A DNA stretch of 64,000 bases, taken from contig JANMHX010000328.1 of NCBI GenBank assembly GCA_031375485.1, positions 64,008-128,007 on the forward strand, in the 5' to 3' direction. Under the pieces are notes generated by a model. It had not been told where the DNA came from. It saw only the letters and a list, made by a program, of their open reading frames with translations, and made no database searches. Position numbers and translations under genes: made by a program. Shown in pieces: positions 9,727-37,242 of this stretch. The stretch comes from Gemmatimonadota bacterium (GTDB lineage Bacteria > Gemmatimonadota > Gemmatimonadetes > Gemmatimonadales > GWC2-71-9). Each line of letters starts with the position of its first letter. Positions within the stretch are counted from its first letter, which is position 1.

Positions 9727-9797
9727 GACCGGAACTCCTGGTTGAATCGCAACAGTGACGGCGACCAGCCCAATATAGCCGTTGGAGTCGGTGTCGA

Positions 9798-15660: not shown

Positions 15661-15746
15661 GGTGGTGCCAGTCGTTGCAGTCGGGGGCCCATGGCTCGGG
15701 CGGTGGCCCCGTCTCTCAAGCTAGGATTTGGACTCGGTTGGAGCAA

Positions 15747-15772
15747 GGAACGGCTGTCACAATCGTGGTTCC
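15747..15772. promoter_or_regulatory. inverted repeat GGAAC-N16-GTTCC in divergent TBDR intergenic region; minus-strand reading gives GGAAC-N15-CGTT (ECF-like)
   Basis: Seen directly in the sequence between the divergent TBDR starts (15660 and 15810). A further GTTCC lies at 15779-15783. The spacing is one nt shorter than the usual ECF spacing. Confidence 0.3.
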
Positions 15773-15809
15773 CCGCGGGTTCCTTGGGCATCCTCAACAG
15801 GGTGATCCC

Positions 15810-18206
15810 GTGCTGGTTCGAACCCGACTCACAGCCGCCGTGCTGGCCTCGCTCCTTGCCGCGCCAGCCTGGGCGCAATCCCCGGCCGCTACCGGGTCGA
15901 TCCTTGGCGATCTGGTCGATGCCTCCTCAGGCAGTCCGGTGGCCCAGGCCCAGGTGTCGCTCCGGGGCACCATCCTCCAGGCCACGACCGACCTCAGGGG
16001 ACACTTCATCCTCCGGGCGGTACCGGCAGGATCCTACACCCTCGATGCCCGGCGGATCGGCTACCAACCGGTGGTTCGCGACAGCCTCGTCGTCGCCGCG
16101 GGCGACACCGTCCGCCTCGCGTTGTCGATCAGCCCGGCGCCGTTTCAGCTTGCCGAAATCACCGTCACGCCCGGTTCATTCTCGATCCTCGATGCCGGTC
16201 CGGCCAGCCGGCAAACCTTGTCGCGGGCCGAACTCCAAGGGGCCCCGTTCGGCGAAGACCTCTTTCGGGCGGTTAACCGGTTGCCGGGCCTGGCCTCGGG
16301 CGACTACGGGGCCCACTTCTCGATTCGCGGGGGTCGCGCCGACGAAACCCTCATTCTTCTCGACGGGCTCGAGATCTACGAGCCGTTTCACTTGAAGGAC
16401 TTCGACGGCGGCGCGCTCAGCATCATCGATGTGGACGCGATCGACGGGGTCGAGCTCCTGACCGGCGGTTTCCCGGCCCATTACGGCGACAAACGAAGCG
16501 GGGTGATGAACATTTCATCGCGGACCCCGAAGCAGGACGGGACTCGGCTGACCCTGGGGGCGAGCTTCACCAATGCCCATGCCCTCGCGGAGGGGAGTTT
16601 CGGCAACAAGAAGGGCTCGTGGCTGGTGTCCGGCCGCCGCGGATTCGTCGATCTTTTGCTTGGGCTCATCAACAAGAAGGAGACCAAGGCGCCGACCTAT
16701 TACGATGTCTTCGGGACGGCGCGGTATCAAATTCATCCCAACCACACGCTCGCGTTCAGCGTCCTCCGCGCCGACGACAACTACCGCTTTACCATCAAGG
16801 GCACGACCGGGTTCAACGATTCGATTCCCACGGTGGAAACCGCCAACAACGGCTACGGGAACTCCTATGCTTGGTTGACGCTCCGGTCTTTGCTTGGCCC
16901 CCATGTCAGCGTCCGAACGCTCGCCTCCGTCGGGTCGGTCACCGCCACCCGTTTGGGCGACGAAGTGGCGGTCAGAGGCCCAGTTGAGCTCTACGGAGTG
17001 AATGGCAAACGCAACTTTTCGCTGGTTGGGTTCAAGCAGGACTTTGAGTTCCAACCGTCGAACCGGGTGATCATCGATTGGGGCTACGACCTCCGATCGT
17101 TAGACGCGACCTTCGATTGGACCAACCGGGTCACCAAGAACCCCGACGATCCAACCCCGGATACCACGGGTTACTACCCCAGGGTGACCCGGCGTGCGAA
17201 GACGGCCACCGGCACGACCCTCGGCGCCTACGTCAGCAATCGCCTTCAGGTCCTCGATCCGCTCACGCTCGAGCTCGGGCTCCGGTACGACGGGGCCGAC
17301 TACAGCCACGACCGCGACGTAAGTCCCCGGATCCACGCCCTCGCTCGACTCTCGGAGCGAAGTTCGCTCCGGGCTGGATGGGGTCTCTACCGCCAGCGCC
17401 AGGGCATCGCCGACGAGAACGCGTTCGATCGGTTGAATCGCTACTTCCCCTCCGAGCGGACGTCGCAGTGGACCGTCGGGTTCGAGCATAAGTATGCCGG
17501 CGGATCGTTCCGCGCCGAGGCCTACTATAAGAGTGGGTCGAAGCTCCGTCCGATCCTTCGGAACTGGAAGAGCGGCCTCAACGTGTTTCCGGAGTCGGCC
17601 GAGGACCGGATCCTCGTCTACCCCGACTCGTCGACGTCCAAGGGCATCGAACTATTTCACGAGGGCACGATCGGGCGGCGGGTGAACCTGCGGGCAAGCT
17701 ACTCGCTGGCGTTCGTCGAAGAACATGTGAGCCGGATCGACCACGTCAATGATCCCCTGAAGCCGCCGTTCAATCCAACCCACCCCGGGCCGCAGGACCA
17801 GCGCCACGCGCTCAATCTCGATCTGAGTTACCGGCTGTTCCGGAACTGGACCGCCACCGGGGCGTTCACCTTTCACTCCGGTTGGCCGTTCACGGACGAA
17901 TTCGGGGTCCCGGTTACCCGGCGGAACGGGACGAAAGATCTGGTCGTCCGGCCCGACACTCTCTACGGCGGCCGGCTGCCGTCCTATACGCGAATGGACC
18001 TCCGAGTGACTCGGCGGGTGCAAACCCCGAAGACCGAATTCCGTTTCTTCGTCGAGGTCATCAACCTGACCAATCACGAGAACGTGTTAGGCTACGATGT
18101 CTTCCGGGTCCGCGACGCAGCCGGGGCCTTGAGCCTCCAACGTGACCGGGAAACCTGGTTCTCGATCCTTCCGTCGCTTGGGGTGAGCTGGAGCAGGCGG
18201 TTCTGA
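15810..18206 (+). CDS. TonB-dependent receptor with N-terminal carboxypeptidase-regulatory-like domain
   Basis: A GTG at 15810 gives the signal peptide VLVRTRLTAAVLASLLAAPAWAQ. The plug motif is IRGGRADETLILLDGLEIYEP. The C-terminus ...GVSWSRRF ends in an aromatic residue. Confidence 0.85.
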   Translation: MLVRTRLTAAVLASLLAAPAWAQSPAATGSILGDLVDASSGSPVAQAQVSLRGTILQATTDLRGHFILRAVPAGSYTLDARRIGYQPVVRDSLVVAAGDTVRLALSISPAPFQLAEITVTPGSFSILDAGPASRQTLSRAELQGAPFGEDLFRAVNRLPGLASGDYGAHFSIRGGRADETLILLDGLEIYEPFHLKDFDGGALSIIDVDAIDGVELLTGGFPAHYGDKRSGVMNISSRTPKQDGTRLTLGASFTNAHALAEGSFGNKKGSWLVSGRRGFVDLLLGLINKKETKAPTYYDVFGTARYQIHPNHTLAFSVLRADDNYRFTIKGTTGFNDSIPTVETANNGYGNSYAWLTLRSLLGPHVSVRTLASVGSVTATRLGDEVAVRGPVELYGVNGKRNFSLVGFKQDFEFQPSNRVIIDWGYDLRSLDATFDWTNRVTKNPDDPTPDTTGYYPRVTRRAKTATGTTLGAYVSNRLQVLDPLTLELGLRYDGADYSHDRDVSPRIHALARLSERSSLRAGWGLYRQRQGIADENAFDRLNRYFPSERTSQWTVGFEHKYAGGSFRAEAYYKSGSKLRPILRNWKSGLNVFPESAEDRILVYPDSSTSKGIELFHEGTIGRRVNLRASYSLAFVEEHVSRIDHVNDPLKPPFNPTHPGPQDQRHALNLDLSYRLFRNWTATGAFTFHSGWPFTDEFGVPVTRRNGTKDLVVRPDTLYGGRLPSYTRMDLRVTRRVQTPKTEFRFFVEVINLTNHENVLGYDVFRVRDAAGALSLQRDRETWFSILPSLGVSWSRRF

Positions 18207-18297: not shown

Positions 18298-18816
18298 ATG
18301 TACGGAGTCCTTGGGTCAGCTCGGCCGGTGTGGGCGGCGGCGGTCATCGCGCTCGCGACCGTCGGCTGTAGCGAGCCGGTCGAACCGGTGGCGGCGATGC
18401 TCGAGCCGGGCCGGTATGTCCTCAGTACGATCGACGGCGCACCGCCACCGTTCCTCCTGACCTGGCTCGAGCGGGAGGGGCAGGCAACCGTGTTGACCGC
18501 GACCTCCTACGATACCATCACCGTGATCGACGACTCGACGGCCCGGCAGCACGTGCGGCAGGCGACCCAAGAGCAAATCGGCAACGCGGCCCCGGTGGAA
18601 GTGGCTGCCTCGGAGATCGACGCGGTGAAGCGGATGCTTCGGCGCGACGACGAGATCGTGCTCGTGGCCTTTGGCGCCGAAGGCCCGGTCTATCTCGTGC
18701 CCCGCGATGGCGGCTTGATTCGGCGGGTCCAGATCATCCAGGCTCGTTGTTCCGCGACCGGGGCGTGTTCGACCCTTTCGAATCGAATCGTCGAGGCCCG
18801 CTATGTCCGCCGGTAG
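18298..18816 (+). CDS. hypothetical lipoprotein
   Basis: Lipoprotein signal ...AAVIALATVGCSEP. It sits 92 nt downstream of the TBDR, and its 3' end overlaps the next gene by 14 nt. Confidence 0.6.
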   Translation: MYGVLGSARPVWAAAVIALATVGCSEPVEPVAAMLEPGRYVLSTIDGAPPPFLLTWLEREGQATVLTATSYDTITVIDDSTARQHVRQATQEQIGNAAPVEVAASEIDAVKRMLRRDDEIVLVAFGAEGPVYLVPRDGGLIRRVQIIQARCSATGACSTLSNRIVEARYVRR

Positions 18817-19588
18817 GCTGCTGGCCGCCGGGGCACTGGTCCTGGCCGGATGCGGGGCGGAAACCGGGCCGGCCCCGGCCGGCCTCAACGGGAGTTTCGG
18901 CGGCCGGATGTTCGGCGTCACCGACTTCTTCGGGTTGTCGCTCCGGGAGTCGGGCGGCGTCATCACCGGCTCCGCCTGGTCCAGTATCTCGGCGACCCTG
19001 GATCGAAGCGCGCGAGTCACCGGATCGTTGGCGGGGAAGACCGTCGCGCTTCGGCTCAAAGGGCCGGCCGGCCAGCCCGACTGGTTCTTCAACGGTACCT
19101 GGGACGCGGATTCCCTTCGGGGCGAAGTGGCGATCGTGGTAGGGCGGGGCTTCAACGTCGATTTGGGCCGAGTCGACACGATCCCCAGCGGGAACGCCAC
19201 GATCGCCGTCCGCGGCGCCGAGACGAGCGACGCCGCCGGGCGGGCGCTGTTCGGCTACGACCAGAATGACAATTACGCCCCCGTGCTGGCCATCGAGACC
19301 GGCCCGCCGTTTGCCGCGCTCGTGTCTTTCAAGTGGCCGGGGCGAGTCCGCCCCGGCGTCGGTGATGTCCCACTTGGGGAATCGTCGCGCCCGGCCGTTT
19401 TCTTCCTCCGCGACCAGAACAGTGGCAATCCGATCAGCTACACCGTCACCGGAGGGACGCTCCGGATCGAGCATGCGAACCGGTTCACTCTGGCCGGGCG
19501 GATCGAGTTGACCGCGCGAAGCCCGTCCGGCGGTGTCGTGACCGTGACCGGGACCTACAGCGCCGGTTGCGTCTTCGGATACTGCTGA
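18803..19588 (+). CDS. hypothetical lipoprotein
   Basis: Lipoprotein signal MSAGRLLAAGALVLAGCGAE. It overlaps the preceding lipoprotein gene. It was preferred over the long antisense ORFs, which lack motifs. Confidence 0.6.
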   Translation: MSAGRLLAAGALVLAGCGAETGPAPAGLNGSFGGRMFGVTDFFGLSLRESGGVITGSAWSSISATLDRSARVTGSLAGKTVALRLKGPAGQPDWFFNGTWDADSLRGEVAIVVGRGFNVDLGRVDTIPSGNATIAVRGAETSDAAGRALFGYDQNDNYAPVLAIETGPPFAALVSFKWPGRVRPGVGDVPLGESSRPAVFFLRDQNSGNPISYTVTGGTLRIEHANRFTLAGRIELTARSPSGGVVTVTGTYSAGCVFGYC

Positions 19589-25467: not shown

Positions 25468-27264
25468 TCAACGATCCGGGGTGATCGGGAGGAGAAGATA
25501 GGACGCGCGCCGGCCACCGGAGTATACGGTGTTGGTTGCGGTGAGCCAGCTGGTTTCGGTAACGTTGTCGCCGCCGGTGTTGAGGTTCCGGTCGTGGAGC
25601 GGGAAATCGCTGCTCGACACCCAGAGCCGAATTCGGTGCCCCGGCGCAAAATGGTGGGCGGTGGCCTTGAGATTGACGTCGAGCCGGACCACGTGGCCCG
25701 GCGAGAGCCAGACCGGCTTCGTCATCCCGTTTCGGTACCGGGCCCGGATCACGCCGCTCGCCACATTCCAGGAGCGTCCCTCGGCATCGACGTCGATCAG
25801 TTTGGCGGTGAAGTCGGTGTCGTTGCGATCCGACGAGACGTAGAGAGTTGCCTTAACGCTCCCGGCAATGGTGACCCCGCGTTCGAGGGGCGGGGTCGAG
25901 TAGATCAGCAGATCCTTCCGCCCCTCGAGGTCGCTCTGGTCGAAGGCGCCTGGTTGGTCCTTCGGATTTCCGGTGCAGCAGACGGTCCCGCCCCGGCTCG
26001 GCACCGGATCATCGGGATCATAGCGAAAAACGTCGCGACCCGGGGCAGGGGGGCGGGTCGACAACCGCCCGTCACCCAGGAAGTACCGGGTTGGTTTAAC
26101 CGCGGGAACCGGCCAGCTCGGCGCGGTCCGCCATTCATTGAGGCCGGTCAGGTAGTACTGGACCCGCGGACGCTTGGTGACGCCGTTGTCGATGCCTTTC
26201 AGCCAGTGGTCGAACCAGTCGAGATAGATCTGGAAGTACGGCAACCGGGCATCCCCGAACTCGCGATCGCCGACCTTGGTCGGGGCGCCGGCGGCTTCGC
26301 TCAGGCAATGCGCTGTCGGTGACATGATCACGAATTGGTTGTCGCGGGCCCGGGCGGACAGCGAGGTCTGGCGCATCAGGTTGAACAAGTACATCGTCTG
26401 GTCGGGCGTCACGTCAAACCACGAGTTCACGTGCAGCGCGGGCACGTCGAACCGGTCGTCGTCCCGGACGTAGTGCATCTGGTCCCAGTAGGGATCGGCC
26501 GGAGGATGGGTGACGAAATCCTTGAAGTCCGACGGCGGGTACCCGGCCCGCTCGGCCATGGTCGCGAGCGGCAGGCTCTTCAGGACCTTGGCGAAGTCGA
26601 GATTCGCAAGGTCTCCGGTCCGGCCCTTCACTTTGGATCCCGATCCGCCCATCCACCCGAACAGGGCCGAGAGCGTGATCGTGCCGCCCTCATAGGTTCC
26701 CCAATTGGTGTAGTAGCCGCCGGCAGGCCCCATGGCGCCGGTCGAGGACTGCGGGATCATGGCCGCATGGTTCGGGTGCCGGTTCTTGGCGGCCAGCAGT
26801 TGGACTTCGCCCATATAGGAACATCCGTAGGTGCCGACCTTCGGGATTGCCCATGGCTGCTTCACGATCCAGTCGATCGCGTCGTAGCCGTCCTCGCCGT
26901 CTTTCATCTGGACGGCAAACTCGCCATTCGATTGGAATTTGCCGCGGATGTCCTGGGTCACCACGAGATAGCCCTGCCCGGCGAAGAACTTGGCCGGCTC
27001 GGTCACGAACGGCATGGCCTCTTGGTTATAGGGGGTCCGAATCAAGATGACCGGAAACCGAGGGCCTGGTAGCGTTGGGCGGAAGAGGTTGGTGGCCAGC
27101 CGCACCCCGTCGCGCATTGGGACCATGACGCCGCGTTCGATCGTGAATTCGTTCTGGGCCGCGGGAGGGGCAATCGGCGGTTGGGTTTGTCCGGCACCAG
27201 CCCGCGGCCAAAGCAACGCCAGGGTCGCGAGTGCGGCTGCGATTCTGAATCGCCGATCAAACAT
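25468..27264 (-). CDS. CocE/NonD family hydrolase (S15 X-Pro dipeptidyl-peptidase-like), secreted
   Basis: Has a signal peptide, the LIRTPYN motif, the nucleophile elbow GCSYMG, and a C-terminal beta-sandwich region typical of CocE/NonD proteins. Its stop lies 4 nt from the next gene's start. Confidence 0.85.
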   Translation of the reverse strand: MFDRRFRIAAALATLALLWPRAGAGQTQPPIAPPAAQNEFTIERGVMVPMRDGVRLATNLFRPTLPGPRFPVILIRTPYNQEAMPFVTEPAKFFAGQGYLVVTQDIRGKFQSNGEFAVQMKDGEDGYDAIDWIVKQPWAIPKVGTYGCSYMGEVQLLAAKNRHPNHAAMIPQSSTGAMGPAGGYYTNWGTYEGGTITLSALFGWMGGSGSKVKGRTGDLANLDFAKVLKSLPLATMAERAGYPPSDFKDFVTHPPADPYWDQMHYVRDDDRFDVPALHVNSWFDVTPDQTMYLFNLMRQTSLSARARDNQFVIMSPTAHCLSEAAGAPTKVGDREFGDARLPYFQIYLDWFDHWLKGIDNGVTKRPRVQYYLTGLNEWRTAPSWPVPAVKPTRYFLGDGRLSTRPPAPGRDVFRYDPDDPVPSRGGTVCCTGNPKDQPGAFDQSDLEGRKDLLIYSTPPLERGVTIAGSVKATLYVSSDRNDTDFTAKLIDVDAEGRSWNVASGVIRARYRNGMTKPVWLSPGHVVRLDVNLKATAHHFAPGHRIRLWVSSSDFPLHDRNLNTGGDNVTETSWLTATNTVYSGGRRASYLLLPITPDR

Positions 27265-27399
27265 AGCCAGCGCCTTGAACGGGACGACGGTCGGGGTCGG
27301 ACCCGAAAGGTGTCTCCCGTCGCGGCCCGTCGCAACCGCACCGAGGTACGGTCGGCCGGCTCCGAGTCGCCGTTTCAGCGATCGGCAGGCCCGGCCTGG

Positions 27400-27424
27400 C
27401 CCCGCCGCGGAATCGGCGGCGGGG
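27400..27424 (-). terminator. G+C-rich hairpin downstream of lipoprotein gene (putative terminator without U-tract)
   Basis: The sequence is CCCCGCCGC-ggaatcg-GCGGCGGGG, a 9-bp perfect stem. It lies 13 nt beyond the stop at 27438 on the minus strand. No T-run follows. Confidence 0.4.
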
Positions 27425-27437
27425 GGCCTCGTGCTGG

Positions 27438-28121
27438 CTACAGCGCCCGGAGGGTCATCGAGAATGGAAGGCTGAAGTACCCGGTAAGCGTCGGTCCCTT
27501 CCGGATCCTGGTGTCGGGGTTATAAGTCACTCCGGCGAGATCGGCGGTTCCCGGACACGATCCGTTGGAAACGACGGTCCAAGTGGTGGGGCTGGTGCGA
27601 GTGATGTACCCATAGATCGACGGGCTCGCCGCGTAGTTCTCGGTCGTGCTATGGAAGAACATCCGCGTCTGGGTGGTGGCGGTCTGATAGCCGAACGAGA
27701 CTGGATAGCAGGCCGAGGTACCGACCGCCAAGTCGGTCAGCTTCGGTTCCGGCAACACGGCCCCGTTGGTCTGATTCAGCATCTGGATCAGGCCCGTGTT
27801 TGGCACCGGTGTGAAGGGCGCTCCCGAGACCTGGACGCTGAAGTCGACGATCAGAGAACGTGAGGTTCCGCCCGGATTGAAGTGCAGGTTGCCGACGCCG
27901 TCGATGTACGAAGAGACTCCCGCCACCCCATCGATATACTCGCCGCTTCCGTCGCTTCGGATCCGGCTTCCGGCATCCGATACCGTCACGCCCAGCCGGA
28001 CATTCGGTGCCGCTCCCGTGGCAAGTTGGATCGGCACCGCCGGCGTGGGGGCGTTGGGGTTCGAATCAGTACAACCCAGCGACAAGCCTGACAGCACGAC
28101 GAGCGACAGCAGTTTCCGCAT
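27438..28121 (-). CDS. hypothetical lipoprotein (part of the CHAT/ECF locus)
   Basis: The ATG at 28121 is preceded by GGAGG at 5 nt spacing. The lipoprotein signal is MRKLLSLVVLSGLSLGC. I recognise no family. Confidence 0.65.
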   Translation of the reverse strand: MRKLLSLVVLSGLSLGCTDSNPNAPTPAVPIQLATGAAPNVRLGVTVSDAGSRIRSDGSGEYIDGVAGVSSYIDGVGNLHFNPGGTSRSLIVDFSVQVSGAPFTPVPNTGLIQMLNQTNGAVLPEPKLTDLAVGTSACYPVSFGYQTATTQTRMFFHSTTENYAASPSIYGYITRTSPTTWTVVSNGSCPGTADLAGVTYNPDTRIRKGPTLTGYFSLPFSMTLRAL

Positions 28122-28169
28122 AACGACCTCCGAAAGTGTTCTGACGAGGAAGGAAAGTGACGTTATGAA

Positions 28170-28196
28170 ATACGGATGGCGTTCGAGTCGATTGCG
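28170..28196 (-). promoter_or_regulatory. bipartite motif CGCAATCG-N11-ATCCGTAT (minus strand), candidate ECF-type promoter of lipoprotein gene 27438..28121
   Basis: The plus strand reads ATACGGAT-N11-CGATTGCG. The motif ends 48 nt upstream of the ATG at 28121. An identical copy with identical spacing lies at 29643..29669. The AAT-N16-CGT geometry resembles ECF -35/-10 elements. Confidence 0.55.
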
Positions 28197-28200
28197 CTCG

Positions 28201-29589
28201 TCAGAACAACCGCCAATAGGTTGCGACGCGGGTGCCTTTTCCGCCCTCGACGGCTTGCCCGGTCGTCCACGTGCCGAGGCGCGAAATGGCGAACCCCAAC
28301 CCGGCTTGTTGTCGGTCACCGAGGCCACTCAGGCCGACCACGGAGGTGCTCGTATACGGCGGGAGCCAAACGACCGACATCCACCGGAAACCGTCAGGCC
28401 GGCACTGAGGTCCGAGAATCCGCCCGCGGTCGTCCACGCTGGTGGCCTCGTTGCAGGTTCCGGGAAGGAGCGTTGCCTCGCTCCAGGTCGAGCCGGTCCG
28501 GCGCCACAAGGCGGGTCCCGAACCTAATTGGCCGACCGCCAGGTCTCCCGCCGAATTGAGTCCGTTGATCTTGCTGGAGGGCCCGCCGAAGACAACGAGG
28601 GTCCAGCCTCCGGCGCCATCGGGAGTCCAAACCGCCGCGCTGGGCGCTGACGCAATCCCGACATATCCGGCGACCATGCCCGAGGCACTCGCCGCCGTCG
28701 CGAGGCCGAGCGGGCTTCCCGCTGGGGTCGGAAGCACGGTTCGCCGCCAACCGGTTCCCTCGGCGATCCAGGCCCGCGGTTGCCGGACGAGCGACGGATC
28801 GGGGTTGGTGCCAATGCCTTCCGTTCCGGCAATGACGCGGGCCCGGCCGGTCAAAGGGTCTGAGCCCACCGCTAAAGCCAGGCTGTGGCTTGCGGCCGGA
28901 TCCGTCGGGAGATTGGCCCGGGTCCACGCCCCGCCTTGAGAGGTCCAGGTAACGGCATTGCTGGCGGACGTCCCGACCACCGTCGTTCCAGCTTCATCGA
29001 CCGCCCAGGCGCCGTTGGTGCTGCTGGGGCCTTGGTCGGTGGGTAGGACGGTCGCTCCGCTGGTCGCGGTCCAGACGAAGCCGGGCACTTCGCCCCGGTC
29101 GAACCAGCCCACAACCGTTCCGAGTTCGTTGACGCCGCGCCCGCCGACCGCCCCCGCGATCGGGACGGCCCGAGTCACCTCGAACAAAGCTGACCCGACG
29201 CCCTTCTTCGAGTCGGGGTTGGTGACCGTGATATCGTACAAAGTGACCGGCGCGTCCGCCGCGATGGTGATGGCGGCAACCAGCCGGGTCGGGCTGGTCA
29301 CCTGGACCGCTCCGACTTGGATCTTCGATTCGGGCGCGCCGGCGAGCTCCCAAGCGACTTGGGCGCCCGAGGCGAAGTTGGTACCCGAGATCGTGATCTG
29401 CACCGCCGCGTCCCCGCCGCGTCCGATGACCGGACCGGACGATGTGACGGTGGGGGCGGCGGGGGGTGGAGGTGGCGGCGGCGGATTCACTGGACCATTG
29501 GTTGAGGCGCCGCCGCAACCCAGCAAGCCTGCAACTGCCAGGGTGGGGAGCCACGCTCGAACGCTACGGACGGAGCAACAGCATCGCAT
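28201..29589 (-). CDS. lipoprotein with IPT/TIG-like Ig domain and HAF-like extracellular repeats (paralog 1)
   Basis: The ATG at 29589 is preceded by GGAGGG at 5 nt. The lipobox is LAVAGLLGC, followed by a run of 8 Pro. The IPT-like segment is VQITISGTNFASGAQV...YDITVTNPDSKKGVG. Repeats resemble the HAF type (NELGTVVG, DEAGTTVVG, NSAGDLAVG, DDRGRILG). Confidence 0.7.
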   Translation of the reverse strand: MRCCCSVRSVRAWLPTLAVAGLLGCGGASTNGPVNPPPPPPPPAAPTVTSSGPVIGRGGDAAVQITISGTNFASGAQVAWELAGAPESKIQVGAVQVTSPTRLVAAITIAADAPVTLYDITVTNPDSKKGVGSALFEVTRAVPIAGAVGGRGVNELGTVVGWFDRGEVPGFVWTATSGATVLPTDQGPSSTNGAWAVDEAGTTVVGTSASNAVTWTSQGGAWTRANLPTDPAASHSLALAVGSDPLTGRARVIAGTEGIGTNPDPSLVRQPRAWIAEGTGWRRTVLPTPAGSPLGLATAASASGMVAGYVGIASAPSAAVWTPDGAGGWTLVVFGGPSSKINGLNSAGDLAVGQLGSGPALWRRTGSTWSEATLLPGTCNEATSVDDRGRILGPQCRPDGFRWMSVVWLPPYTSTSVVGLSGLGDRQQAGLGFAISRLGTWTTGQAVEGGKGTRVATYWRLF

Positions 29590-29628
29590 GACGACCCTCC
29601 AACGGTGAGTGACCTCGGGTTGCCGATG

Positions 29629-29655
29629 TGGAATGGAAGCAGATACGGATCGTGG
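29629..29655 (+). promoter_or_regulatory. degenerate ECF-like element TGGAATGG-N11-GATCGTGG (GGAAT-N16-CGT), possible autoregulated promoter of the sigma operon
   Basis: It lies on the plus strand, upstream of the sigma gene. It shares the AAT-N16-CGT spacing with the two minus-strand motifs and physically overlaps the copy at 29643..29669. The match is only partial. Confidence 0.3.
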
Positions 29656-29669
29656 GGCAGCCGATTGCG
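29643..29669 (-). promoter_or_regulatory. bipartite motif CGCAATCG-N11-ATCCGTAT (minus strand), candidate ECF-type promoter of HAF-like lipoprotein gene 28201..29589
   Basis: Both 8-mers and the 11-nt spacer length are identical to the copy at 28170..28196. The motif ends 53 nt upstream of the ATG at 29589. Confidence 0.55.
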
Positions 29670-29685
29670 GGGAGAGGTCGTCGCG

Positions 29686-29714
29686 TTGACAGGCTGCCTG
29701 CGCCGCCGTACTAT
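29686..29714 (+). promoter_or_regulatory. sigma-70-type promoter candidate TTGACA-N17-TACTAT upstream of the ECF sigma gene
   Basis: A perfect -35 hexamer lies at 29686-29691. A 17-nt spacer precedes the -10 hexamer TACTAT at 29709-29714. The orientation is toward the sigma/anti-sigma/CHAT operon. Confidence 0.55.
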
Positions 29715-29805
29715 CGGCCCTTCCACCTCACGACGGTTCTCTCTGAGCGTCTCCGGACCCGATTCGCTAGGAAACTTGCTCGGCGCGAGCGAGGCGGACC
29801 GGCCG

Positions 29806-30399
29806 GTGGCGTGGGCCGCCTTTCTCGCGGAGTTCAGCCCTCTCCTGCTGCATGTGGCGCGAAGCCAGGGCGGTGATCACGACGCCGTGATGGATCGGTA
29901 TCTATCACTGGTCGAAGCCTTGCAGGACCGCGACTTTCGGCGGCTCCGGACCTATTCGATCGAGGCCGGCGGCAAGTTCACGACTTGGCTGATCGTCGTG
30001 GCTCGCCGGATCTGCTTCGACCATCACCGGGCCCGGTACGGACGTCCCCAATCCGATTCACCCGCCGCAGCGGCTCGACACTTCGAGCGTCGCCAACTCG
30101 TGGACCTCCTTGGCGGCGAAGTCGGGCTCGACGGAGTCGAGACGCCGGCGGACAATGATCCTGAAACCGACTTCCGACAACGGGATCTCCGTGGCACGCT
30201 GACTCTGGCTTTGGCTTCGTTGTCGGCCCCCGACCGACTCGTTCTCAAACTCCGGTTCGAGGACGACCATTCCGTCCCTCAAGTGGCCCGGTTAGTTGGC
30301 GATGCATCCGCGTTCGCGATGTACCGCCGGATCGACCGCCTGTTGGCCCGGCTTCGGGGGCGGCTGCGGCAAGCGGGCGTCGAGGACGGCGTGCCGTGA
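29806..30399 (+). CDS. ECF-type sigma-70 family sigma factor
   Basis: Region 2 is TWLIVVARRICFDHHR. Region 4.2 is LSAPDRLVLKLRFEDDHSVPQVARLVGDASAFAMYRRIDRLLARLR. The start is uncertain: GTG 29806, TTG 29776, or the ORF-track GTG at 29605. I disfavour 29605 because a strong promoter-like element lies inside it. Confidence 0.75.
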   Translation: MAWAAFLAEFSPLLLHVARSQGGDHDAVMDRYLSLVEALQDRDFRRLRTYSIEAGGKFTTWLIVVARRICFDHHRARYGRPQSDSPAAAARHFERRQLVDLLGGEVGLDGVETPADNDPETDFRQRDLRGTLTLALASLSAPDRLVLKLRFEDDHSVPQVARLVGDASAFAMYRRIDRLLARLRGRLRQAGVEDGVP

Positions 30400-30457
30400 C
30401 CGCAATTCAAACCGCCGCTATCCGTTTCTTGTCACGGACTCCCTGGAACCGCAGCCA

Positions 30458-31063
30458 ATGAACCTCGAACGGCCGGACCACCTCGCCGCCGCCGACATCG
30501 CCGCGTATCTCGACCGATCCGCCGCCCGGAGTCGCCGCGATCGGATCGAGCAACATCTTGAGGCCTGTCCGGAATGTCGGGAGGAACTCGTCCTCGTGGC
30601 CCGACTGGTCGATTCGGCGCCGCCGGCAACGGCGCCCGGCCGCAACCGGCCGCGGCGGTACGTCAGCCGGATCGCCGTTGGCGTGGCACTGGCCGCTGGC
30701 CTTGCGGCCTTGGCGATTGCCCGGCCCGGGCTGATCAGCCCCAGTCGCCGAGACCCGGTCCGGGCGCCCGATTTCTCCGAAGGGCGCTCCCCGCTCGATG
30801 TCGTGTCGCCGGTCGGGGATTCGCTGCTGACGCGGGACGGCCTCGTCCTGTCGTGGCGCGGAGCCCGGGTCAGTCTCTACCGCGTGACGGTCATGACACT
30901 GGGCGGCGAGCCGGTTTGGACGACCGATACCCCTGACACCGCCATTGTCGTTCCGGACACCGTGCGTTTGGTTCCCGGCAGCACCTACTTCTGGCGGGCC
31001 GATGGGATCGCCATCGGCATTGCGGCCTCGACCGGAGCCCAACGCCTCCGGGTTGGTCGTTGA
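30458..31063 (+). CDS. anti-sigma factor, zinc-finger (zf-HC2 / ZAS-like), single-pass membrane with ~100 aa extracytoplasmic domain
   Basis: Starts at the ATG at 30458. Contains the Hx3Cx2C motif HLEACPEC and a TM segment IAVGVALAAGLAALAIA. Its TGA stop overlaps the TTG start of the next gene (TTGA). Confidence 0.8.
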   Translation: MNLERPDHLAAADIAAYLDRSAARSRRDRIEQHLEACPECREELVLVARLVDSAPPATAPGRNRPRRYVSRIAVGVALAAGLAALAIARPGLISPSRRDPVRAPDFSEGRSPLDVVSPVGDSLLTRDGLVLSWRGARVSLYRVTVMTLGGEPVWTTDTPDTAIVVPDTVRLVPGSTYFWRADGIAIGIAASTGAQRLRVGR

Positions 31064-34023
31064 CTCTCCGTCGCACCTTCGGCCTCCTTCTCGCCGGTCT
31101 CACGGGCTGCCGGGCGAGCGGTCCTCGCACGACCACTGGCTCAGGGGCGCCGGATTCACTGATTGCGGCCGGCGAGGCGCTCTATTCCGCCGAACGCTTC
31201 GATTCGGCCCGTGCCGTATGGACACTCGCCCGACTGGAAGCGGAGCGAGTTCCGGACGAACCCCGGTTGGCACGATCGCTCACCTGGCTTGCGCTCCTGG
31301 CCGGGAGGCTCGGTCAACTCGACACCGCCCGGCGTTTGGGCGAAGAAGCGCTCGCGATCAAGACCCGTCGCGGGATGAGTCGGGAGTTGTCCGCCTCGTA
31401 CCATGCGCTTGGTCTCGTGGCGTTGGATGAGGGGCGGAATCAGGAAGGGCGACGGCTGTTCGAACAGGCCCGCGATTGGGCTGAAAAATCCGGGGACAGC
31501 CGCGGCACGGCCCAAGCCGAGGGTGGGCTCGGCCTGGCGGACGGGTACCTCGGCGATCTCAAACAGGCCCGGGCTGGCCACCGTCGAGCGCGGGAACTCG
31601 CCCGGGCCATCGGGGATCCCCGGCTTGAAGGCCACGGGCTCGCCAATGAGGCCATGGTCGACATCTGGGAGGGCCAGGCACTTCCGGCGGTCGCCCGACT
31701 TGACACCGCCCGCAGGCTCTATCAAGTGGCGGGCTCTACGGCTGGGGAGCAGAACGCGCTCGGCCAGTTGGCTACCGCACATGAAAGCATGGGGAGGGAG
31801 GATCTGGCCCTGGCGGCCCTCGACTCGTCGCTCACCATCAGTCGCCGCCTCGGTCTCGCCGAGCAGGAGACCGATCTGCTTCGGCTCATCGCCGGTGTCC
31901 ATCTTCGGCTCGGCGACTATCGTGAAGCCCTCGCGACCTACCAACGAGCCGAGACCGGGATGCGAGCCGGCGGCCTGTGGTCCAACCTCGGGGCGGTGCT
32001 CCGAGGCGCGGCGAACGCCAGCCTCCGACTCGGCGATCTCCCAACCGCTCGCGTCAAGCTCGCCGAAGCCCTGACTCGCCATACCGAGTCGGCCGAGCCC
32101 CTCGAGCGGCTCGACGACCTCTTGCTCGCCGCGGAAGTTGATGCTCGGCTCGACGGGATCGACCGGTCTGAGGAACGAATCGGTGAAGCCCGTGGCCTGG
32201 CCGATCGACTCAAGACGCGCGGCGCCAGAGTGGTGGTCGTGCTGGCAGAGGCCCACATCGCCAGTCGCGCGGGCGATGCGAGGCGGGTACTCCGAGTCCT
32301 CCGAACCGCGGCCCCCGACCTGGCCGGCGATCTCGGGGCTGAGTGGATGGCAAACGCCCTCGCCGCGAAAGCCTACGCCCGCCTTGGCAACCTCGATTCC
32401 GCTCGATCCACAGGCCGGCGGGCCGTCGCCGCGATCGACCTTCTCCGGGGCAATCTTGCCTCAGAAGCCCTCCAATCCACGTACCTGGCCGATCGCGCTG
32501 AAGTCTTTGGCGAGCTGGTCGTCACCCTGCTCCGGATGGGGCGGCCAGGCGAGGCCTTCGAGGTGGCCGACGCCGCTCGAAGCCGCCGACTCCTCGATCA
32601 CATCGGCGCGACCAGAACCGCGGCCGCCTCGGGGGCGCCGACGACCGAAGTCATTTCCGGCGAACGGCTCCTCGAGCGGATCGACGAATTGGTCCACCGC
32701 CTTCGAGCGACGGAGCGGAGCTGGTCTCGCGAGCGCGGCGGGGCCCTGGATCGGAGCGGAGTGGAGCTGGCGTCGGAGTTGGCGCAGGCGCGCCGCGAGT
32801 ATGAGGGTCTCATGGTCCGGGCCGCGCAACAGAACACTCGCTCGACTGCAATCCTGGGAGCCCGTCGGGTCCAACTCTACCAAGCTCAGCGGGCCCTTCG
32901 GGAGGAGGAGGCGCTCGTCGAGTACCTCATTGCCGGCAACGAGCTGGTGACATTCATACTGACGAGGGACAGCCTCCGGGTAATCCAGCGACCCATCGCG
33001 CCGGGCACCCTGGTGCAACAGGTCCGCTTGCTTCGCGATCTGTGGGAACGGCACCGGCCGGACTGGGAGCTCGGGCTCACCGCCTCCCGCAATTTGTATC
33101 AGACCCTGATTGCCTCGGTGCTGGCAGAACCCGAACTTCGTCGGGTCCGCCGGTTGATGGTGGTGCCCCAGGGAGTCTTGAACCAAGTACCCTTCGCGGC
33201 ACTGCAGGATGGGGTGAGCCGGCGGTTCCTGTCCCAGGACCTGAGCCTAGTCTTATTGCCGGCGGCGGCGGCCTTGACCGCCCTTCGAGAGCAAGGAATT
33301 GCGCCCAGCGTCTGGAGCGCCGGCGGATCCGGGTTCGCGCCGTTCACCGGCCGAGACGAATTGCCGGCAACCGGGCTCGAGGTCGAGGCGTTTCGGGCGG
33401 CGGCGCCGGGTCGGGTGGTCCGGTTGCGGGGACAGGCTACCGAGACGGCACTGCGCATCGCTTTGGCTCAAACGGGCATCGTTCATGTCGCAACCCACGG
33501 CGTCCTCAATGTCCACAGCCCGCTGTTCTCACGGATTGAACTTGCCGTGCCGAGTCGCGTGACCCGCAATGACGACGGCCGGCTCGAGATCCACGAAGTT
33601 CTCGGCCTGACCGCTCGAAGCAGTCTGGTGTTCCTGTCGGGCTGTGAAACCGGCGCCCGCCAGGAGTGGCTCGATGACCCGCTCCGGGGTACCGGCGATC
33701 TCTCGCTCGCGCAGGCCCTGCTGTCGGCCGGCGCGGAGAACGTCATTACGACGCTGTGGCGGATCGAAGACGCCGGAGCCGCCCGGTTCGCGACGCACTT
33801 CTATCAGAATCTGACCCGGATGCCGCTAGCGGAGGCGTTCGTGACCGCCCAGCGGGCCATGGCGGCCGATCCCCGGTTTCAGAACCCATATTATTGGGCG
33901 GGGTATGTTTTATCGGGTGAGGGCGGGGCGGAGCCCCTGCCGCAAACGGCTGCCGTCCCATCCGTACTAGAATTGACCGCTCGTCGTTCCGCGAGCGAGT
34001 CTTCGAAGAGGAGCAGGCCATGA
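31060..34023 (+). CDS. TPR-repeat / CHAT-domain (caspase-like) protease, predicted lipoprotein
   Basis: The N-terminus is (M)TLRRTFGLLLAGLTGC, with a lipobox. About 600 aa of TPR-like helical repeats follow. The C-terminal CHAT domain has VHVATHG (His codon 33496-33498) and LVFLSGCETG (Cys codon 33643-33645). Confidence 0.85.
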   Translation: MTLRRTFGLLLAGLTGCRASGPRTTTGSGAPDSLIAAGEALYSAERFDSARAVWTLARLEAERVPDEPRLARSLTWLALLAGRLGQLDTARRLGEEALAIKTRRGMSRELSASYHALGLVALDEGRNQEGRRLFEQARDWAEKSGDSRGTAQAEGGLGLADGYLGDLKQARAGHRRARELARAIGDPRLEGHGLANEAMVDIWEGQALPAVARLDTARRLYQVAGSTAGEQNALGQLATAHESMGREDLALAALDSSLTISRRLGLAEQETDLLRLIAGVHLRLGDYREALATYQRAETGMRAGGLWSNLGAVLRGAANASLRLGDLPTARVKLAEALTRHTESAEPLERLDDLLLAAEVDARLDGIDRSEERIGEARGLADRLKTRGARVVVVLAEAHIASRAGDARRVLRVLRTAAPDLAGDLGAEWMANALAAKAYARLGNLDSARSTGRRAVAAIDLLRGNLASEALQSTYLADRAEVFGELVVTLLRMGRPGEAFEVADAARSRRLLDHIGATRTAAASGAPTTEVISGERLLERIDELVHRLRATERSWSRERGGALDRSGVELASELAQARREYEGLMVRAAQQNTRSTAILGARRVQLYQAQRALREEEALVEYLIAGNELVTFILTRDSLRVIQRPIAPGTLVQQVRLLRDLWERHRPDWELGLTASRNLYQTLIASVLAEPELRRVRRLMVVPQGVLNQVPFAALQDGVSRRFLSQDLSLVLLPAAAALTALREQGIAPSVWSAGGSGFAPFTGRDELPATGLEVEAFRAAAPGRVVRLRGQATETALRIALAQTGIVHVATHGVLNVHSPLFSRIELAVPSRVTRNDDGRLEIHEVLGLTARSSLVFLSGCETGARQEWLDDPLRGTGDLSLAQALLSAGAENVITTLWRIEDAGAARFATHFYQNLTRMPLAEAFVTAQRAMAADPRFQNPYYWAGYVLSGEGGAEPLPQTAAVPSVLELTARRSASESSKRSRP

Positions 34024-35336
34024 AACGGGTGCCGCTGCAGGTGATCTCTCGGTTGTTGGTCGCGGCGGGTGCGGGTTTGGGGTTCGGCTGCGGCCGGTCG
34101 CCGGAGCCGGTCACCGGTCCGAATTTCGGGAAGGCGGCCACGGGACCAACGGTCACCGCGTCCTTGCCGGCGTACGGCTACGAGGGCGAGGTCTCGAAGC
34201 AGGTGGCCATTACGGGATCGGGGTTTGCGATCGGTGCGGCGGCGTCGTGGGAGCGGAACGGATCGCCGGACCCGAAAATTCAGGTGGTGTCCACCCAGTA
34301 CCTGAGCCCCACTCAAGTTGTCGCGACGGTCAACATCGCGCCGGACGCGGCTCTCACCTTTTACGACCTCGCCGTCACCAACCCCGATCGCAAGAAGGGG
34401 ATTGGTTATCGCCTGTTCGAGGTCACCCGGGCGATCGTGGTCGACAGCGTCGCCAACTTCCGCGCCGCCAACGGCGGGGGTGGTTTGGTCGGTGTCTATT
34501 TTCCCAAGGCGAACAAGCCGCAACTCGCCCGATTTTGGAGCCAGAGCACCGGGTTGGTCACGCTCCCCGGCAGCGGCACGTCGGCCTGGGCCATCGACGA
34601 AGCCGGCGAGACGATTACCGGAAACGCAAGCGGCGGGACCGGCGGGTTCATCCCGATCTGGACTAAGTCGGGATCTGGGTGGGTCATGGGAACGCTGCCG
34701 ATTGGCCCCGGTTCGGCGGGTGGGAACGGTCGGGCCATTGCGTCCGATCCGGTGACGGGCCTGGCCCGATACGTCGCCGGGATTGAGGAACGGTCGGCGA
34801 GGGTGTGGCGGCGAGGAACGTCGGGGTGGGAGCGCGTGGTCCTGCCGTCGCTCACGAGTCCCGCCAACGACGTGGTCCAAGGGGTCAGTCGCACCGGCGT
34901 GGTCGTCGGGTTCTCGGCCGCTCACGCCACGGTGTGGGAGCCCGATGGTCAAGGTGGCTATACCGCCACGGCCCTGCCTGGGACCGCCAACTACGCCAAC
35001 GGCATCAACGGCGCCGGGGACCTGATCGTCGGTTCGTACAACCAGACCGGTGGAGCCTTCTACTGGGTGCGCCTGCCCGGGGGTGGATGGAGCGCGCCGC
35101 AGGCGCTGCCGATCGCGTGTGGCGCCGCGATCGACGTCGATGATCTGGGCCGGATCGCGGCCAACGATTGTCCGCGATCAGGGCAGAACGTCGCGCCCGC
35201 CGTCTTCCTGCCTCCGTACACCGGCGCCCCGATCTGGCTCGGCACCTTGGGCGGCAACGGTACGCTTCGGGTCGAGGGGATGTCGCGAACCGGTGGCTGG
35301 CTGGCGGGCGCCAACGTCTACTGGCACATCGACTAG
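34020..35336 (+). CDS. lipoprotein with IPT/TIG-like Ig domain and HAF-like extracellular repeats (paralog 2)
   Basis: The start has an ATGA overlap with the CHAT gene stop. The lipobox is GLGFGC. The N-terminal domain aligns with paralog 1 (YDLAVTNPDRKKGIGYRLFEVTRA vs YDITVTNPDSKKGVGSALFEVTRA). Repeats resemble the HAF type (NGINGAGDLIVG, DVDDLGRIA). Confidence 0.75.
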   Translation: MKRVPLQVISRLLVAAGAGLGFGCGRSPEPVTGPNFGKAATGPTVTASLPAYGYEGEVSKQVAITGSGFAIGAAASWERNGSPDPKIQVVSTQYLSPTQVVATVNIAPDAALTFYDLAVTNPDRKKGIGYRLFEVTRAIVVDSVANFRAANGGGGLVGVYFPKANKPQLARFWSQSTGLVTLPGSGTSAWAIDEAGETITGNASGGTGGFIPIWTKSGSGWVMGTLPIGPGSAGGNGRAIASDPVTGLARYVAGIEERSARVWRRGTSGWERVVLPSLTSPANDVVQGVSRTGVVVGFSAAHATVWEPDGQGGYTATALPGTANYANGINGAGDLIVGSYNQTGGAFYWVRLPGGGWSAPQALPIACGAAIDVDDLGRIAANDCPRSGQNVAPAVFLPPYTGAPIWLGTLGGNGTLRVEGMSRTGGWLAGANVYWHID

Positions 35337-35505
35337 ATCCCCGGGCCGGTCCCCGATCACTCTGCTCCCTCGCGAGGCTCCCTCGGCAAGGACGTCCTTG
35401 ACCCCACGCGCGGTCGGACCGACCTTGTCGGGGCCCGTTTGGTTCGCGCGTCGCTACCCAAGACGGACGTCCCGCAACACCAGGCTGAACCCGCTCGCTT
35501 AGGCC

Positions 35506-37242
35506 GTGAACGTGACCAAACTGGAACCGACGGACCTCTCTCGCCGGACCCTTCTGCTGTCGATGGCAGGTGCCGCGACCTTGCGCTGGCCGAGTTCTCT
35601 TTGGCAGGATGCCCCCGCCGATCTGATCCTCCATGACGGCGACATCCATCTCGTCGACCGTGCCTTTCGCCGGGTCGAGGCAATCGCCCTCGGTGGCGGT
35701 CGAGTCCTGGCGGCGGGCGCAACGGCGGAGGTCAGGCGCCGGGCCGGCCCTCGGACCGCATCGGTCAACCTTCGGGGCCGGACCGTCCTGCCCGGCGCCA
35801 ACGACACCCATCTCCACGGACTCCTCTGGGGCTACGCTCAACCACCGTTCACGGTCGACGTGAGCTATCCGACCGTCCGCTCGATCGCCGACGTCCTCGA
35901 ACGGGTTCGGCAGGCCGCCGCCTCGCGCGCGCCGGGCCAGTGGATCCAGGGCAACGGCTGGGATCAACGGTACTTCGCCGAGGGCCGCGCGCCGACCCGG
36001 CAGGATCTCGACCGGGTCGCTCCCGACCATCCGGTGGTGCTGAACGAGTTCTCGTTCCACGCGGTCTGGGCCAACTCGAAGGCGCTGGCGCTGGCCGGCA
36101 TTACCCGAGAAACCGTGCCGGCGAGCCCGGGAGGGATCGTGAAAGACGCCGCGGGCGACCCGACCGGGGTGTTGCTGGAGGAGACGTCGGCCCTGGTGCG
36201 GCGGGTCATTCCGCCCTACTCGGCGGCCGAGCGCCGCCAGGGCTTCGACAATGCCATGGCCCTGATCGCCTCGAACGGCATTACCAGCTACACCGATCCA
36301 CTGGTCGATGCCGAGGGCGTCGCGCTCTACGCCGAGATGGCGGCGGCCGGCAAGCTCAAAGGCCGGGTCACGATGCTGCTCGGCGGCGGCCGATCCCTGG
36401 CGGATCTCCGGGCAGCGTTAGGCGGGCTCCGGCTCCCCGCCGCGATGGACCCGCGCTGGTGCCGGATGGCCGGCGTCAAGATCGTGGCGGACGGGATCCC
36501 CACCAACAACAAGACCGCCTGGTTGCATCAGCCCTACGAGGGCGGCGGCAACGGGTCGCTCCTCGTCGGTGATGGGCGCGACGCGGAACGGGTGGCCGAA
36601 CTCGAGGCCATGATCGGGCTGGCCCACGAATCAGGGTGGCAAGTCGGGACCCATGCCACCGGCGACCGGACGATTGATGTGACGGTGGAGGCCTACGCCA
36701 ACGCCTTGGCCAAGAAGCCGGACCGGAACCGGCGCCATTACCTGATCCACGCGGACTTGGTGTCGCCCGCCACCCTTCGGCGGATGGCCCGGCTTGGGAT
36801 CGGTGCCAACTTCAACTCGACGATCAAGTATCTGATTGCCGATGGCCAGGTGGCGAGTCTCGGCGCCGTCCGGGCGGCCTATGAATGGCCCTACCGCACC
36901 GCCCTCCAGTCCAAGGTGATCGTTACGACCGGCTCGGATGCGCCGGTGACCGACGGGAACTGGCGTCAGGGCCTGGCCACCTGCGTGACCAGAAAAGGGA
37001 AGCAAACCGGCGCCGTGTCCGGCCCGGCCGAGTCGATTACCCTCGATCAGGCGATCTGGTCGCACACGGCGGCGGGTGCTTGGCAGGATCATGCCGAGCC
37101 GTGGAAAGGGACCTTGACGCCAGGGATGGCGGCGGACCTCGTGGTGCTTGACGGGGCCATCGGCCGGGTGGTGCCCGACGCGATCGGGGCTATGAAAGCC
37201 GACCTGACGGTCGTGAACGGGGCGGTGGTGTTCGAGCGATAG
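35506..37242 (+). CDS. amidohydrolase family (Amidohydro_3-like) metallohydrolase with Tat signal
   Basis: The start codon is GTG. The Tat-like N-terminus is LSRRTLLLSMAGAATL. It has the LPGANDTHLHG (HxH) metal motif and GSDAPV near the C-terminus. Confidence 0.8.
   Translation: MNVTKLEPTDLSRRTLLLSMAGAATLRWPSSLWQDAPADLILHDGDIHLVDRAFRRVEAIALGGGRVLAAGATAEVRRRAGPRTASVNLRGRTVLPGANDTHLHGLLWGYAQPPFTVDVSYPTVRSIADVLERVRQAAASRAPGQWIQGNGWDQRYFAEGRAPTRQDLDRVAPDHPVVLNEFSFHAVWANSKALALAGITRETVPASPGGIVKDAAGDPTGVLLEETSALVRRVIPPYSAAERRQGFDNAMALIASNGITSYTDPLVDAEGVALYAEMAAAGKLKGRVTMLLGGGRSLADLRAALGGLRLPAAMDPRWCRMAGVKIVADGIPTNNKTAWLHQPYEGGGNGSLLVGDGRDAERVAELEAMIGLAHESGWQVGTHATGDRTIDVTVEAYANALAKKPDRNRRHYLIHADLVSPATLRRMARLGIGANFNSTIKYLIADGQVASLGAVRAAYEWPYRTALQSKVIVTTGSDAPVTDGNWRQGLATCVTRKGKQTGAVSGPAESITLDQAIWSHTAAGAWQDHAEPWKGTLTPGMAADLVVLDGAIGRVVPDAIGAMKADLTVVNGAVVFER

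Follow-up and report, generated by a model that had tools for sequence, protein, structure and literature searches.

What reads a bipartite sequence that stands in identical form ahead of two lipoprotein genes, beside a gene for an extracytoplasmic function (ECF)-type sigma factor? The question is raised by a stretch of 64,000 nucleotides (nt) from a Gemmatimonadota bacterium (GenBank assembly GCA_031375485.1, contig JANMHX010000328.1, positions 64,008 to 128,007 of the forward strand), referred to here as the window and numbered from its first letter, for which a first-pass annotation had proposed that the two copies are target promoters of the adjacent sigma factor and define a small local regulon. 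Comparative evidence (occurrence of the motif in sigma/anti-sigma gene spacers, strand bias and variation in spacer length) supports this proposal, and it is with good confidence that we read the motifs as putative promoters of the adjacent ECF sigma factor, driving a local regulon of anti-sigma factor, CHAT protease and Ig/beta-propeller lipoproteins.

A sequence scan of the 64-kb window found CGCAATCG-N11-ATCCGTAT as an exact match at two positions on the minus strand, 29643-29669 and 28170-28196, as had been annotated. The first copy, which holds a CGCAA-N15-TCCGT core and scores 18.8 with a position weight matrix (PWM) built from the sites of related loci (threshold 18.5), ends 53 nt ahead of ATG 29589 of the gene for lipoprotein A; the second (PWM score 20.8) starts 5 nt past the lipoprotein A stop codon (28201-28203) and ends 48 nt ahead of ATG 28121 of a small lipoprotein gene. 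Each of these start codons has a GGAGG-type Shine-Dalgarno (SD) sequence in front. The two genes had been described as divergent lipoprotein genes; they are divergent relative to the sigma factor gene, but lie in tandem on the minus strand. Both annotated copies are thus real, but the window holds four, and the most conserved one had been missed. On the plus strand, CGCAAACG-N11-ATCCGTAC at 33941-33967 (two mismatches to the 27-nt pattern; PWM score 20.7) lies in the CHAT reading frame, in its final 83 nt, and ends 52 nt ahead of ATG 34020 of lipoprotein B. The fourth copy, at 30401-30425 on the plus strand, consists of CGCAATTC and ATCCGTTT separated by a spacer (equivalent to CGCAA ttcaaaccgccgcta TCCGT), was found with the relaxed core and the PWM, and has the top PWM score of the window (24.4); it begins 1 nt past the sigma stop codon (30397-30399) and ends 32 nt ahead of the anti-sigma start codon, ATG 30458. 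All four motifs lie within 6 kb and end about 32-55 nt ahead of SD-bearing start codons.

The 27-nt pattern with up to two mismatches has 3 matches in the window compared to 0.03 expected, and 0 of 100 dinucleotide shuffles reached 3, in keeping with the earlier judgement that chance is a very unlikely cause; at a PWM score of at least 18.5 there are 5 matches compared to 0.175 expected. Taken by itself, the relaxed pattern GCAAWCG-N12-TCCGTA with 2 mismatches does not reach significance in the window (3 found, 2.8 expected), and the significance therefore lies in the exact matches and their positions. Alignment of three upstream regions (alignment A1) showed that conservation is confined to the two blocks of the motif and that the flanks are not conserved; the motif is therefore neither part of a longer repeat nor merely carried along by gene duplication. 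A dispersed repeat (REP/MITE-like), which the first-pass annotation had named as an outcome that would count against its proposal, was ruled out for the 64 kb examined, since only the two short blocks are kept and the hits comprise the four clustered sites and one that is likely due to chance. This last match, TGCAA-N16-TCCGT at 18019-18044 on the plus strand (PWM score 19.3), lies inside a TonB-dependent receptor open reading frame (ORF; 15675-18206); a match that scores this high would turn up in ~16% of random 64-kb windows, and it is probably a chance match rather than an outlying member of the regulon. Two small lipoprotein ORFs (18298-18816 and 18803-19588) begin downstream of it, at a distance of ~250 nt.

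Conservation of the motif was examined in loci that encode homologues of the sigma factor. There were 128 homologues at E ≤1e-10, typically of 219 amino acids (aa), the named ones being from Gemmatimonadales. Retaining one genome per species gave 49 loci, nearly all from Gemmatimonadota metagenome-assembled genomes (MAGs), with sigma factors 33-61% identical; three closer contigs, L050 (sigma factor 69% identical), L051 and L052, were added to give 52 loci. Analysis by tblastn of the 52 loci showed that the order sigma factor, zf-HC2 anti-sigma factor, TPR-CHAT protein, Ig-domain lipoprotein is kept in most loci, with the anti-sigma gene directly downstream of the sigma gene in 40, and that the anti-sigma factor and the TPR-CHAT protein are encoded by separate genes in all related loci. 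A near-exact core (GCAA[T/A]CG, spacer of 11-13 nt, TCCGTA, up to one mismatch) gave merely 6 scattered matches in the 49 loci. The core was relaxed after reading the CHAT/lipoprotein junctions, where CGCA(A/C)-N14-15-(G/A)TCCGT recurs, and the conserved core across the loci is CGCA(A/C)-N14-16-(G/A)TCCGT, which corresponds to AAn-N16(±1)-CGT and bears out the ECF-like spacing noted at first. The motif of two 8-base blocks originally described is exact in the window; by this comparison, the full 8+8 pattern is clade-specific and the informative core is CGCAA / TCCGT.

The regular expression CGCA[AC]-N14-16-TCCGT has 70 matches in the 513 kb of the 52 loci, compared to 15.2 ± 3.7 in first-order Markov simulations and 7 for the reversed pattern. 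PWM matches with a score of at least 18.5 are concentrated in particular places and on particular strands: between +500 and +1000 from the sigma start, which is past the sigma stop codon, there are 36 on the plus strand and 0 on the minus strand (1.4 per kb), between +3800 and +7000, which is past the CHAT gene, 28 and 0, respectively, and between -400 and 0, 3 and 12, whereas in the other sequence (>460 kb) the match density is ≤0.03 per kb. The motif is present in 38/40 sigma/anti-sigma spacers, at a median of 50 nt ahead of the anti-sigma start, and by the strict regular expression at the 3′ end of 17 of the 22 complete CHAT genes, several others having a degenerate -35 block when inspected by eye. 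A minus-strand motif upstream of the sigma gene is also found in L050, L051, L052, L001, L002, L003 and L019. Conservation ahead of orthologous lipoprotein genes, proposed as a check of the original claim, was thus found in relatives both after the CHAT gene and divergently. An SD sequence and the start of a long ORF follow 15-120 nt downstream of 61% of motif sites, compared to 15% of random positions, and the ORFs downstream of additional motif sites mostly begin with lipoprotein signal peptides.

Some loci differ in what the motif precedes. In L050, the closest relative, two tandem copies of the motif (9791-9902, minus strand) lie in the divergent intergenic region ahead of a single small lipoprotein gene, and in L051 the gene that follows the divergent copy encodes a protein with a Big_2 domain and a beta-propeller; the promoter is thus kept on the divergent side, but the genes behind it are not always the same. 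In L048, a Calditrichia MAG with a sigma factor 33% identical, CGCAA-N15-TCCGT at 9098-9122 lies ~34 nt ahead of a zf-HC2 anti-sigma-like ORF that is followed by a CHAT gene. Judging from this locus, the sigma/CHAT module and its promoter may extend beyond Gemmatimonadota.

These data bear on whether a promoter of this kind is read by the sigma factor encoded next to it, or by an alternative sigma factor encoded elsewhere, such as an ECF paralogue, with the adjacent sigma factor merely residing in the same stress locus. Gemmatimonadota genomes encode many ECF sigma factors, and the motif is not ahead of the sigma gene in most loci, such that the argument from autoregulation is missing; both points count for a different sigma factor. 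On the other hand, in all but two of the loci with an adjacent anti-sigma gene the motif accompanies this sigma family, no more than tens of nt from the sigma stop codon, and a different sigma factor would have to co-migrate with the module across genomes whose adjacent sigma factors are merely 33-69% identical, including that of the Calditrichia locus. Variants of the motif also change together with the locus. In the 25 loci with at least two sites, the fifth base of the CGCAA block (A or C) is concordant in 47/52 within-locus pairs (30.9 by permutation), and so is the base that precedes TCCGT (A or G) in 39/52 pairs (20.9 by permutation); 0 of 2000 permutations matched either value. Such concordance within genomes fits what a shared, co-evolving reader would produce, and we regard a reader encoded elsewhere as improbable.

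Rather than a promoter, the two blocks might be the binding site of a conventional DNA-binding repressor or activator, given that operators can take the form of short conserved boxes ahead of co-regulated genes. The blocks are, as the first-pass annotation had noted, not symmetric; they are neither inverted nor direct repeats, and form no palindrome. Across the loci the spacer is 14 nt at 36 sites, 15 nt at 33 and 16 nt at 5, a variation that most dimeric regulators do not tolerate, and its sequence is not conserved. The motif is strictly oriented towards the gene that follows it, the module (sigma factor, anti-sigma factor, CHAT protein and lipoproteins only) lacks a conserved gene for a transcription factor, and no other promoter-like element is found ahead of the target genes. 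An operator is, on this evidence, decidedly improbable.

A signal acting in the RNA (a leader, or a processing or stability signal in a 5′ untranslated region or an operon junction) would account for the two copies that lie at junctions within the operon, between the sigma and anti-sigma genes and between the CHAT and lipoprotein B genes, both of which could be processing sites. At the latter junction, comparison of the CHAT 3′ ends (window 33880-34023, L050 14179-14301 and L051 14218-14340) showed that the C-terminal tail of the protein is variable except for the codons that coincide with the -35 (CGCAA) and -10 (TCCGTA) elements or with the SD/ATGA at the start of the following gene. Being conserved at these DNA signals alone, the tail points to selection on the DNA, with the promoter embedded in coding sequence. 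An Rfam search of the motif region returned no relevant family, and with no complementarity between the two blocks and a spacer that is not conserved, no conserved structure is left; moreover, the copies on the minus strand are found in the intergenic region between divergent genes, where they stand back-to-back with a sigma-70-like promoter and a promoter is needed. An RNA-level element is thus very unlikely. Finally, a functionless remnant of the duplication that gave rise to the paralogous lipoproteins A and B, or chance, can be dismissed as extremely unlikely, since although the two proteins share 38% identity and their motif copies share the spacer part GGCTGCC, the motif bases are 14/16 to 16/16 identical next to unalignable flanks while the proteins have diverged to that level, copies ahead of the unrelated small lipoprotein and anti-sigma genes cannot stem from an A/B duplication, and the motif is kept across about 50 genomes.

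The assignment of the motif to the adjacent ECF sigma factor has to be weighed together with several points that count against it. Transcription start and sigma dependence are predicted here from sequence comparison, and the link between sigma factor and motif rests on adjacency and co-conservation, not on classical autoregulation: on the plus strand upstream of the sigma gene, the PWM score is <12 in all loci but L018, L022 and L036, and 4.6 in the window. The loci used to train the PWM are also those in which its matches were counted; the regular expression counts, shuffles, reversed control and strand bias are independent of it. The concordance between sites of one locus is inflated by shared ancestry among loci. 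Four of the regular expression matches (L008 12389, L026 12362, L034 12428 and L046 7611), all from a more distant subgroup of loci, lie inside the CHAT gene on the codons of a conserved peptide (LRN....HPFYW); they reflect conservation of the protein and are unlikely to be promoters. Residue differences in sigma region 4 between the CGCAA and CGCAC groups gave candidate columns at window residues 167 and 179, but these were not counted as evidence for -35 specificity, as the groups are partly clades. The sigma factor itself is divergent: its matches to the Pfam profiles of regions 2 and 4 are both below the gathering scores, and a phmmer search against the PDB gave no match. As a profile of the family matched only generic entries in the PDB (sigma-4 of SigF and FliA, plus SigW), no ECF group is assigned to it.

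The sigma gene lies at 29743-30399 on the plus strand. Its product (207-219 aa) matches TIGR02937 with 55.2 bits (cutoff 42.9) over residues 12-199, and is co-encoded with a zf-HC2 anti-sigma factor, as is characteristic of ECF (group IV) sigma factors. Candidate starts are CTG 29743 (ATG in close relatives, with N-terminal residues conserved in frame), TTG 29776 and GTG 29806. As the window has CTG where relatives have ATG, the start is either this CTG or one of the downstream TTG and GTG codons; the public gene call (P0001) is 197 aa, ~22 aa under the family norm of 219 aa. Upstream of the gene, TTGACA-N17-TACTAT at 29686-29714 on the plus strand is the sole sigma-70-like match in 27000-35600, and stands back-to-back with the ECF motif of the minus strand, such that 16 nt separate the two -35 elements. 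It is kept at the same place in close relatives (alignment A3), and TTG(A/C)..-N16-18-TAnnnT is found in 21 related loci. A terminator scan gave one weak hairpin, below shuffle expectation, and none between the sigma and anti-sigma genes; the anti-sigma gene is therefore probably expressed by read-through as well as from the sigma-dependent promoter.

The plus strand continues with the anti-sigma, TPR-CHAT and lipoprotein B genes, divergent from the minus-strand lipoprotein A and small lipoprotein genes. The membrane anti-sigma factor (30458-31063; ~201 aa; zf-HC2 28.7 bits, cutoff 22.2) carries a zinc-binding HxxxCxxC motif (HLEACPEC) in its N-terminal part; it also has a single hydrophobic helix (IAVGVALAAGLAALAIA) and a domain of ~110 aa that lies outside. 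The TPR-CHAT lipoprotein (31060-34023, plus strand; 987 aa; CHAT E = 1.6e-52, TPR_12 E = 1.3e-25) is encoded with 4-nt overlaps with the anti-sigma stop codon and the lipoprotein B ATG, and all 18 orthologues compared keep the His and Cys of its HVATHG and LSGCETG motifs. A profile limited to the CHAT domain matched the craspase protein Csx29 (E = 9.6e-7) and the 991-aa chain 8rot_B (E = 1.3e-5) in the PDB; with a full-length TPR-CHAT profile the search was swamped by TPR proteins. Lipoprotein B (34020-35336, plus strand) matches the Ig-like CoaZ_rpt_PGGG profile at 27.6 bits, below the cutoff of 30, and is a paralogue of lipoprotein A (E = 3e-74). Lipoprotein A (28201-29589, minus strand; 462 aa), in which this Ig-like domain passes the cutoff, had been labelled HAF-like, a label that does not hold: no Pfam match was found, and at E ≤0.1 CoaZ_rpt_PGGG is the only NCBIfam match, with no HAF repeat (TIGR03803). 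An AlphaFold2 model of the protein (predicted local distance difference test 78.2, predicted template modelling score 0.73), which rests on an alignment of 4 sequences, the homologue search having returned only 4 proteins, is all-beta with an N-terminal Ig-like domain and a beta-propeller, and Foldseek matched it to WD40, Sec12 and sialidase propellers (E ~1e-5). The lipoprotein A family is sparsely sampled in the database. The small lipoprotein (27438-28121, minus strand; 227 aa) has no Pfam or NCBIfam match, and has homologues in L003, L015, L032, L050 and L052, the motif preceding the gene in L003, L050 and L052. All four products other than the sigma and anti-sigma factors start with lipoprotein signal peptides, with lipoboxes LTGC (TPR-CHAT), GFGC (lipoprotein B), LLGC (lipoprotein A) and SLGC (small lipoprotein).

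As promoters, the CGCAA block would be the -35 and (A/G)TCCGT the -10 element, read by RNA polymerase with the ECF-type sigma factor of ~29743-30399, and transcription would start a few nt downstream of TCCGT. The two minus-strand promoters would drive lipoprotein A and the small lipoprotein, the promoter past the sigma stop codon would drive the anti-sigma factor and, via the 4-nt overlaps, the TPR-CHAT protein, and the promoter inside the CHAT 3′ end would boost lipoprotein B. The sigma factor would be made constitutively from the housekeeping-type promoter and held by the zinc-binding membrane anti-sigma factor until an envelope signal frees it, leading to transcription of the lipoprotein genes and to more anti-sigma factor and CHAT protease, which would act as negative feedback that resets the system. 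From the arrangement of the predicted promoters, negative feedback rather than classical sigma autoregulation is the best reading of the wiring. It is more speculative, and suggested by analogy with DdvA of Myxococcus xanthus, that inactivation of the anti-sigma factor involves the CHAT lipoprotein.

ECF promoters follow an AAC -35 / CGT -10 rule (PMC6061681). The motif resembles them in being bipartite and asymmetric, with an AA(C)-type -35 and a CGT -10 placed 16-17 nt apart, group-specific flanks, a position upstream of and co-oriented with its genes, co-occurrence with the sigma/anti-sigma pair across species, and a small envelope-related regulon. It differs in that the -35 is CGCAA(n) and not GGAAC/GAAAC, the -10 is extended to (G/A)TCCGT, and the best-conserved copy stands after the sigma gene, not before it; a copy upstream of the sigma gene itself, which is typical of ECF sigma factors although not obligatory, was not found in the window. 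For comparison, the Bacillus SigW promoter is TGAAAC-N16-CGTA.

The closest parallel in gene content is DdvS/DdvA of M. xanthus. Promoters of DdvS, mapped by 5′ rapid amplification of cDNA ends, are GTAA-n16-CGT and include one ahead of ddvS (PMC6061681), similar to the GCAA-n16/17-CGT found here. DdvA is a ZAS anti-sigma factor fused to a periplasmic TPR-CHAT region, its catalytic site is described as incomplete, and DdvA-like fusions are reported in Myxococcota and one Comamonas alone (PMC11506125). Both systems combine an ECF sigma factor, a ZAS-type membrane anti-sigma factor, an extracytoplasmic TPR-CHAT protein and several sigma-dependent promoters in one locus (predicted in the present case), and the length of chain 8rot_B equals that of DdvA. 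In contrast to DdvS/DdvA, the TPR-CHAT protein is encoded here by a separate lipoprotein gene rather than fused to the anti-sigma factor, the catalytic-motif His and Cys are invariant rather than part of an incomplete site, the predicted regulon comprises lipoprotein genes rather than CBASS/CRISPR defence genes, and the sigma gene has a sigma-70-like promoter in place of the DdvS-dependent promoter ahead of ddvS. DdvS was not among the matches of the sigma profile to the PDB. By this comparison the module would work like DdvS/DdvA and looks like a split-gene relative in another phylum, and is not a member, because the defining fusion is absent and the regulon is different. A tentative extension, which we hold to be possible but less likely than not to be true in full, is that the module is a Gemmatimonadota-wide, split DdvS/DdvA sensor with pure negative feedback, in which the catalytically intact TPR-CHAT protein would be a signal-activated site-1 protease that clips the outer domain of the anti-sigma factor, and the propeller lipoproteins would be its ligands, partners or substrates.

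The wiring proposed here is the same as that of BldN/RsbN in Streptomyces venezuelae, where the anti-sigma gene's own promoter is a direct target of the cognate ECF sigma factor and the sigma gene is separately controlled (PMC6101532); RsbN, however, belongs to an unrelated class of anti-sigma factors outside the ZAS proteins, a CHAT protease is lacking, the regulon consists of chaplins and rodlins, and the window sigma factor is not of the BldN family (TIGR02952 30 bits, cutoff 206). A CHAT-domain protein is also conserved beside the sigma factors of ECF54, which have CHAT, carboxypeptidase and subtilase genes nearby, for which proteolytic control is proposed, and which are described as lacking an anti-sigma factor (PMC8999054); the zf-HC2 anti-sigma factor, always present here, sets the present family apart from ECF54 by that description. 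In craspase, Cas7-11 is combined with the TPR-CHAT protein Csx29, with Csx30 and the ECF sigma factor RpoE (PMC10028731). Genetic linkage between a TPR-CHAT protease and an ECF-type sigma factor is common to both systems, but here there is no CRISPR context, the CHAT protein is a predicted exported lipoprotein and not part of a cytoplasmic RNA-guided complex, and the anti-sigma factor is a ZAS membrane protein. The main text of the ECF reclassification paper mentions neither CHAT nor Gemmatimonadetes.

The element itself is of an ordinary kind, a probable ECF promoter; less ordinary are its position downstream of the sigma gene and the division of the TPR-CHAT/anti-sigma module into separate genes. 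Promoter-prediction pipelines assume ECF autoregulation and read motifs from the region upstream of the sigma gene (PMC7826278), and if the reading of a split module with negative feedback is true, such standard prediction would systematically miss the promoter of this group. The sigma/promoter pair is a candidate orthogonal part for synthetic ECF switch toolboxes. Gemmatimonadota are a soil phylum with few cultured members in which this divergent, previously uncharacterised ECF sigma family is widespread. For the family, the comparison provides a testable promoter specificity, CGCA(A/C)-N14-16-(G/A)TCCGT, together with a predicted core regulon made up of the anti-sigma factor, the TPR-CHAT protease and exported lipoproteins with Ig and beta-propeller domains. 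ZAS anti-sigma factors are now seen to be associated with TPR-CHAT proteins outside Myxococcota as well, in a split-gene form whose conserved catalytic His and Cys could make it easier to test whether CHAT proteolysis triggers destruction of the anti-sigma factor.

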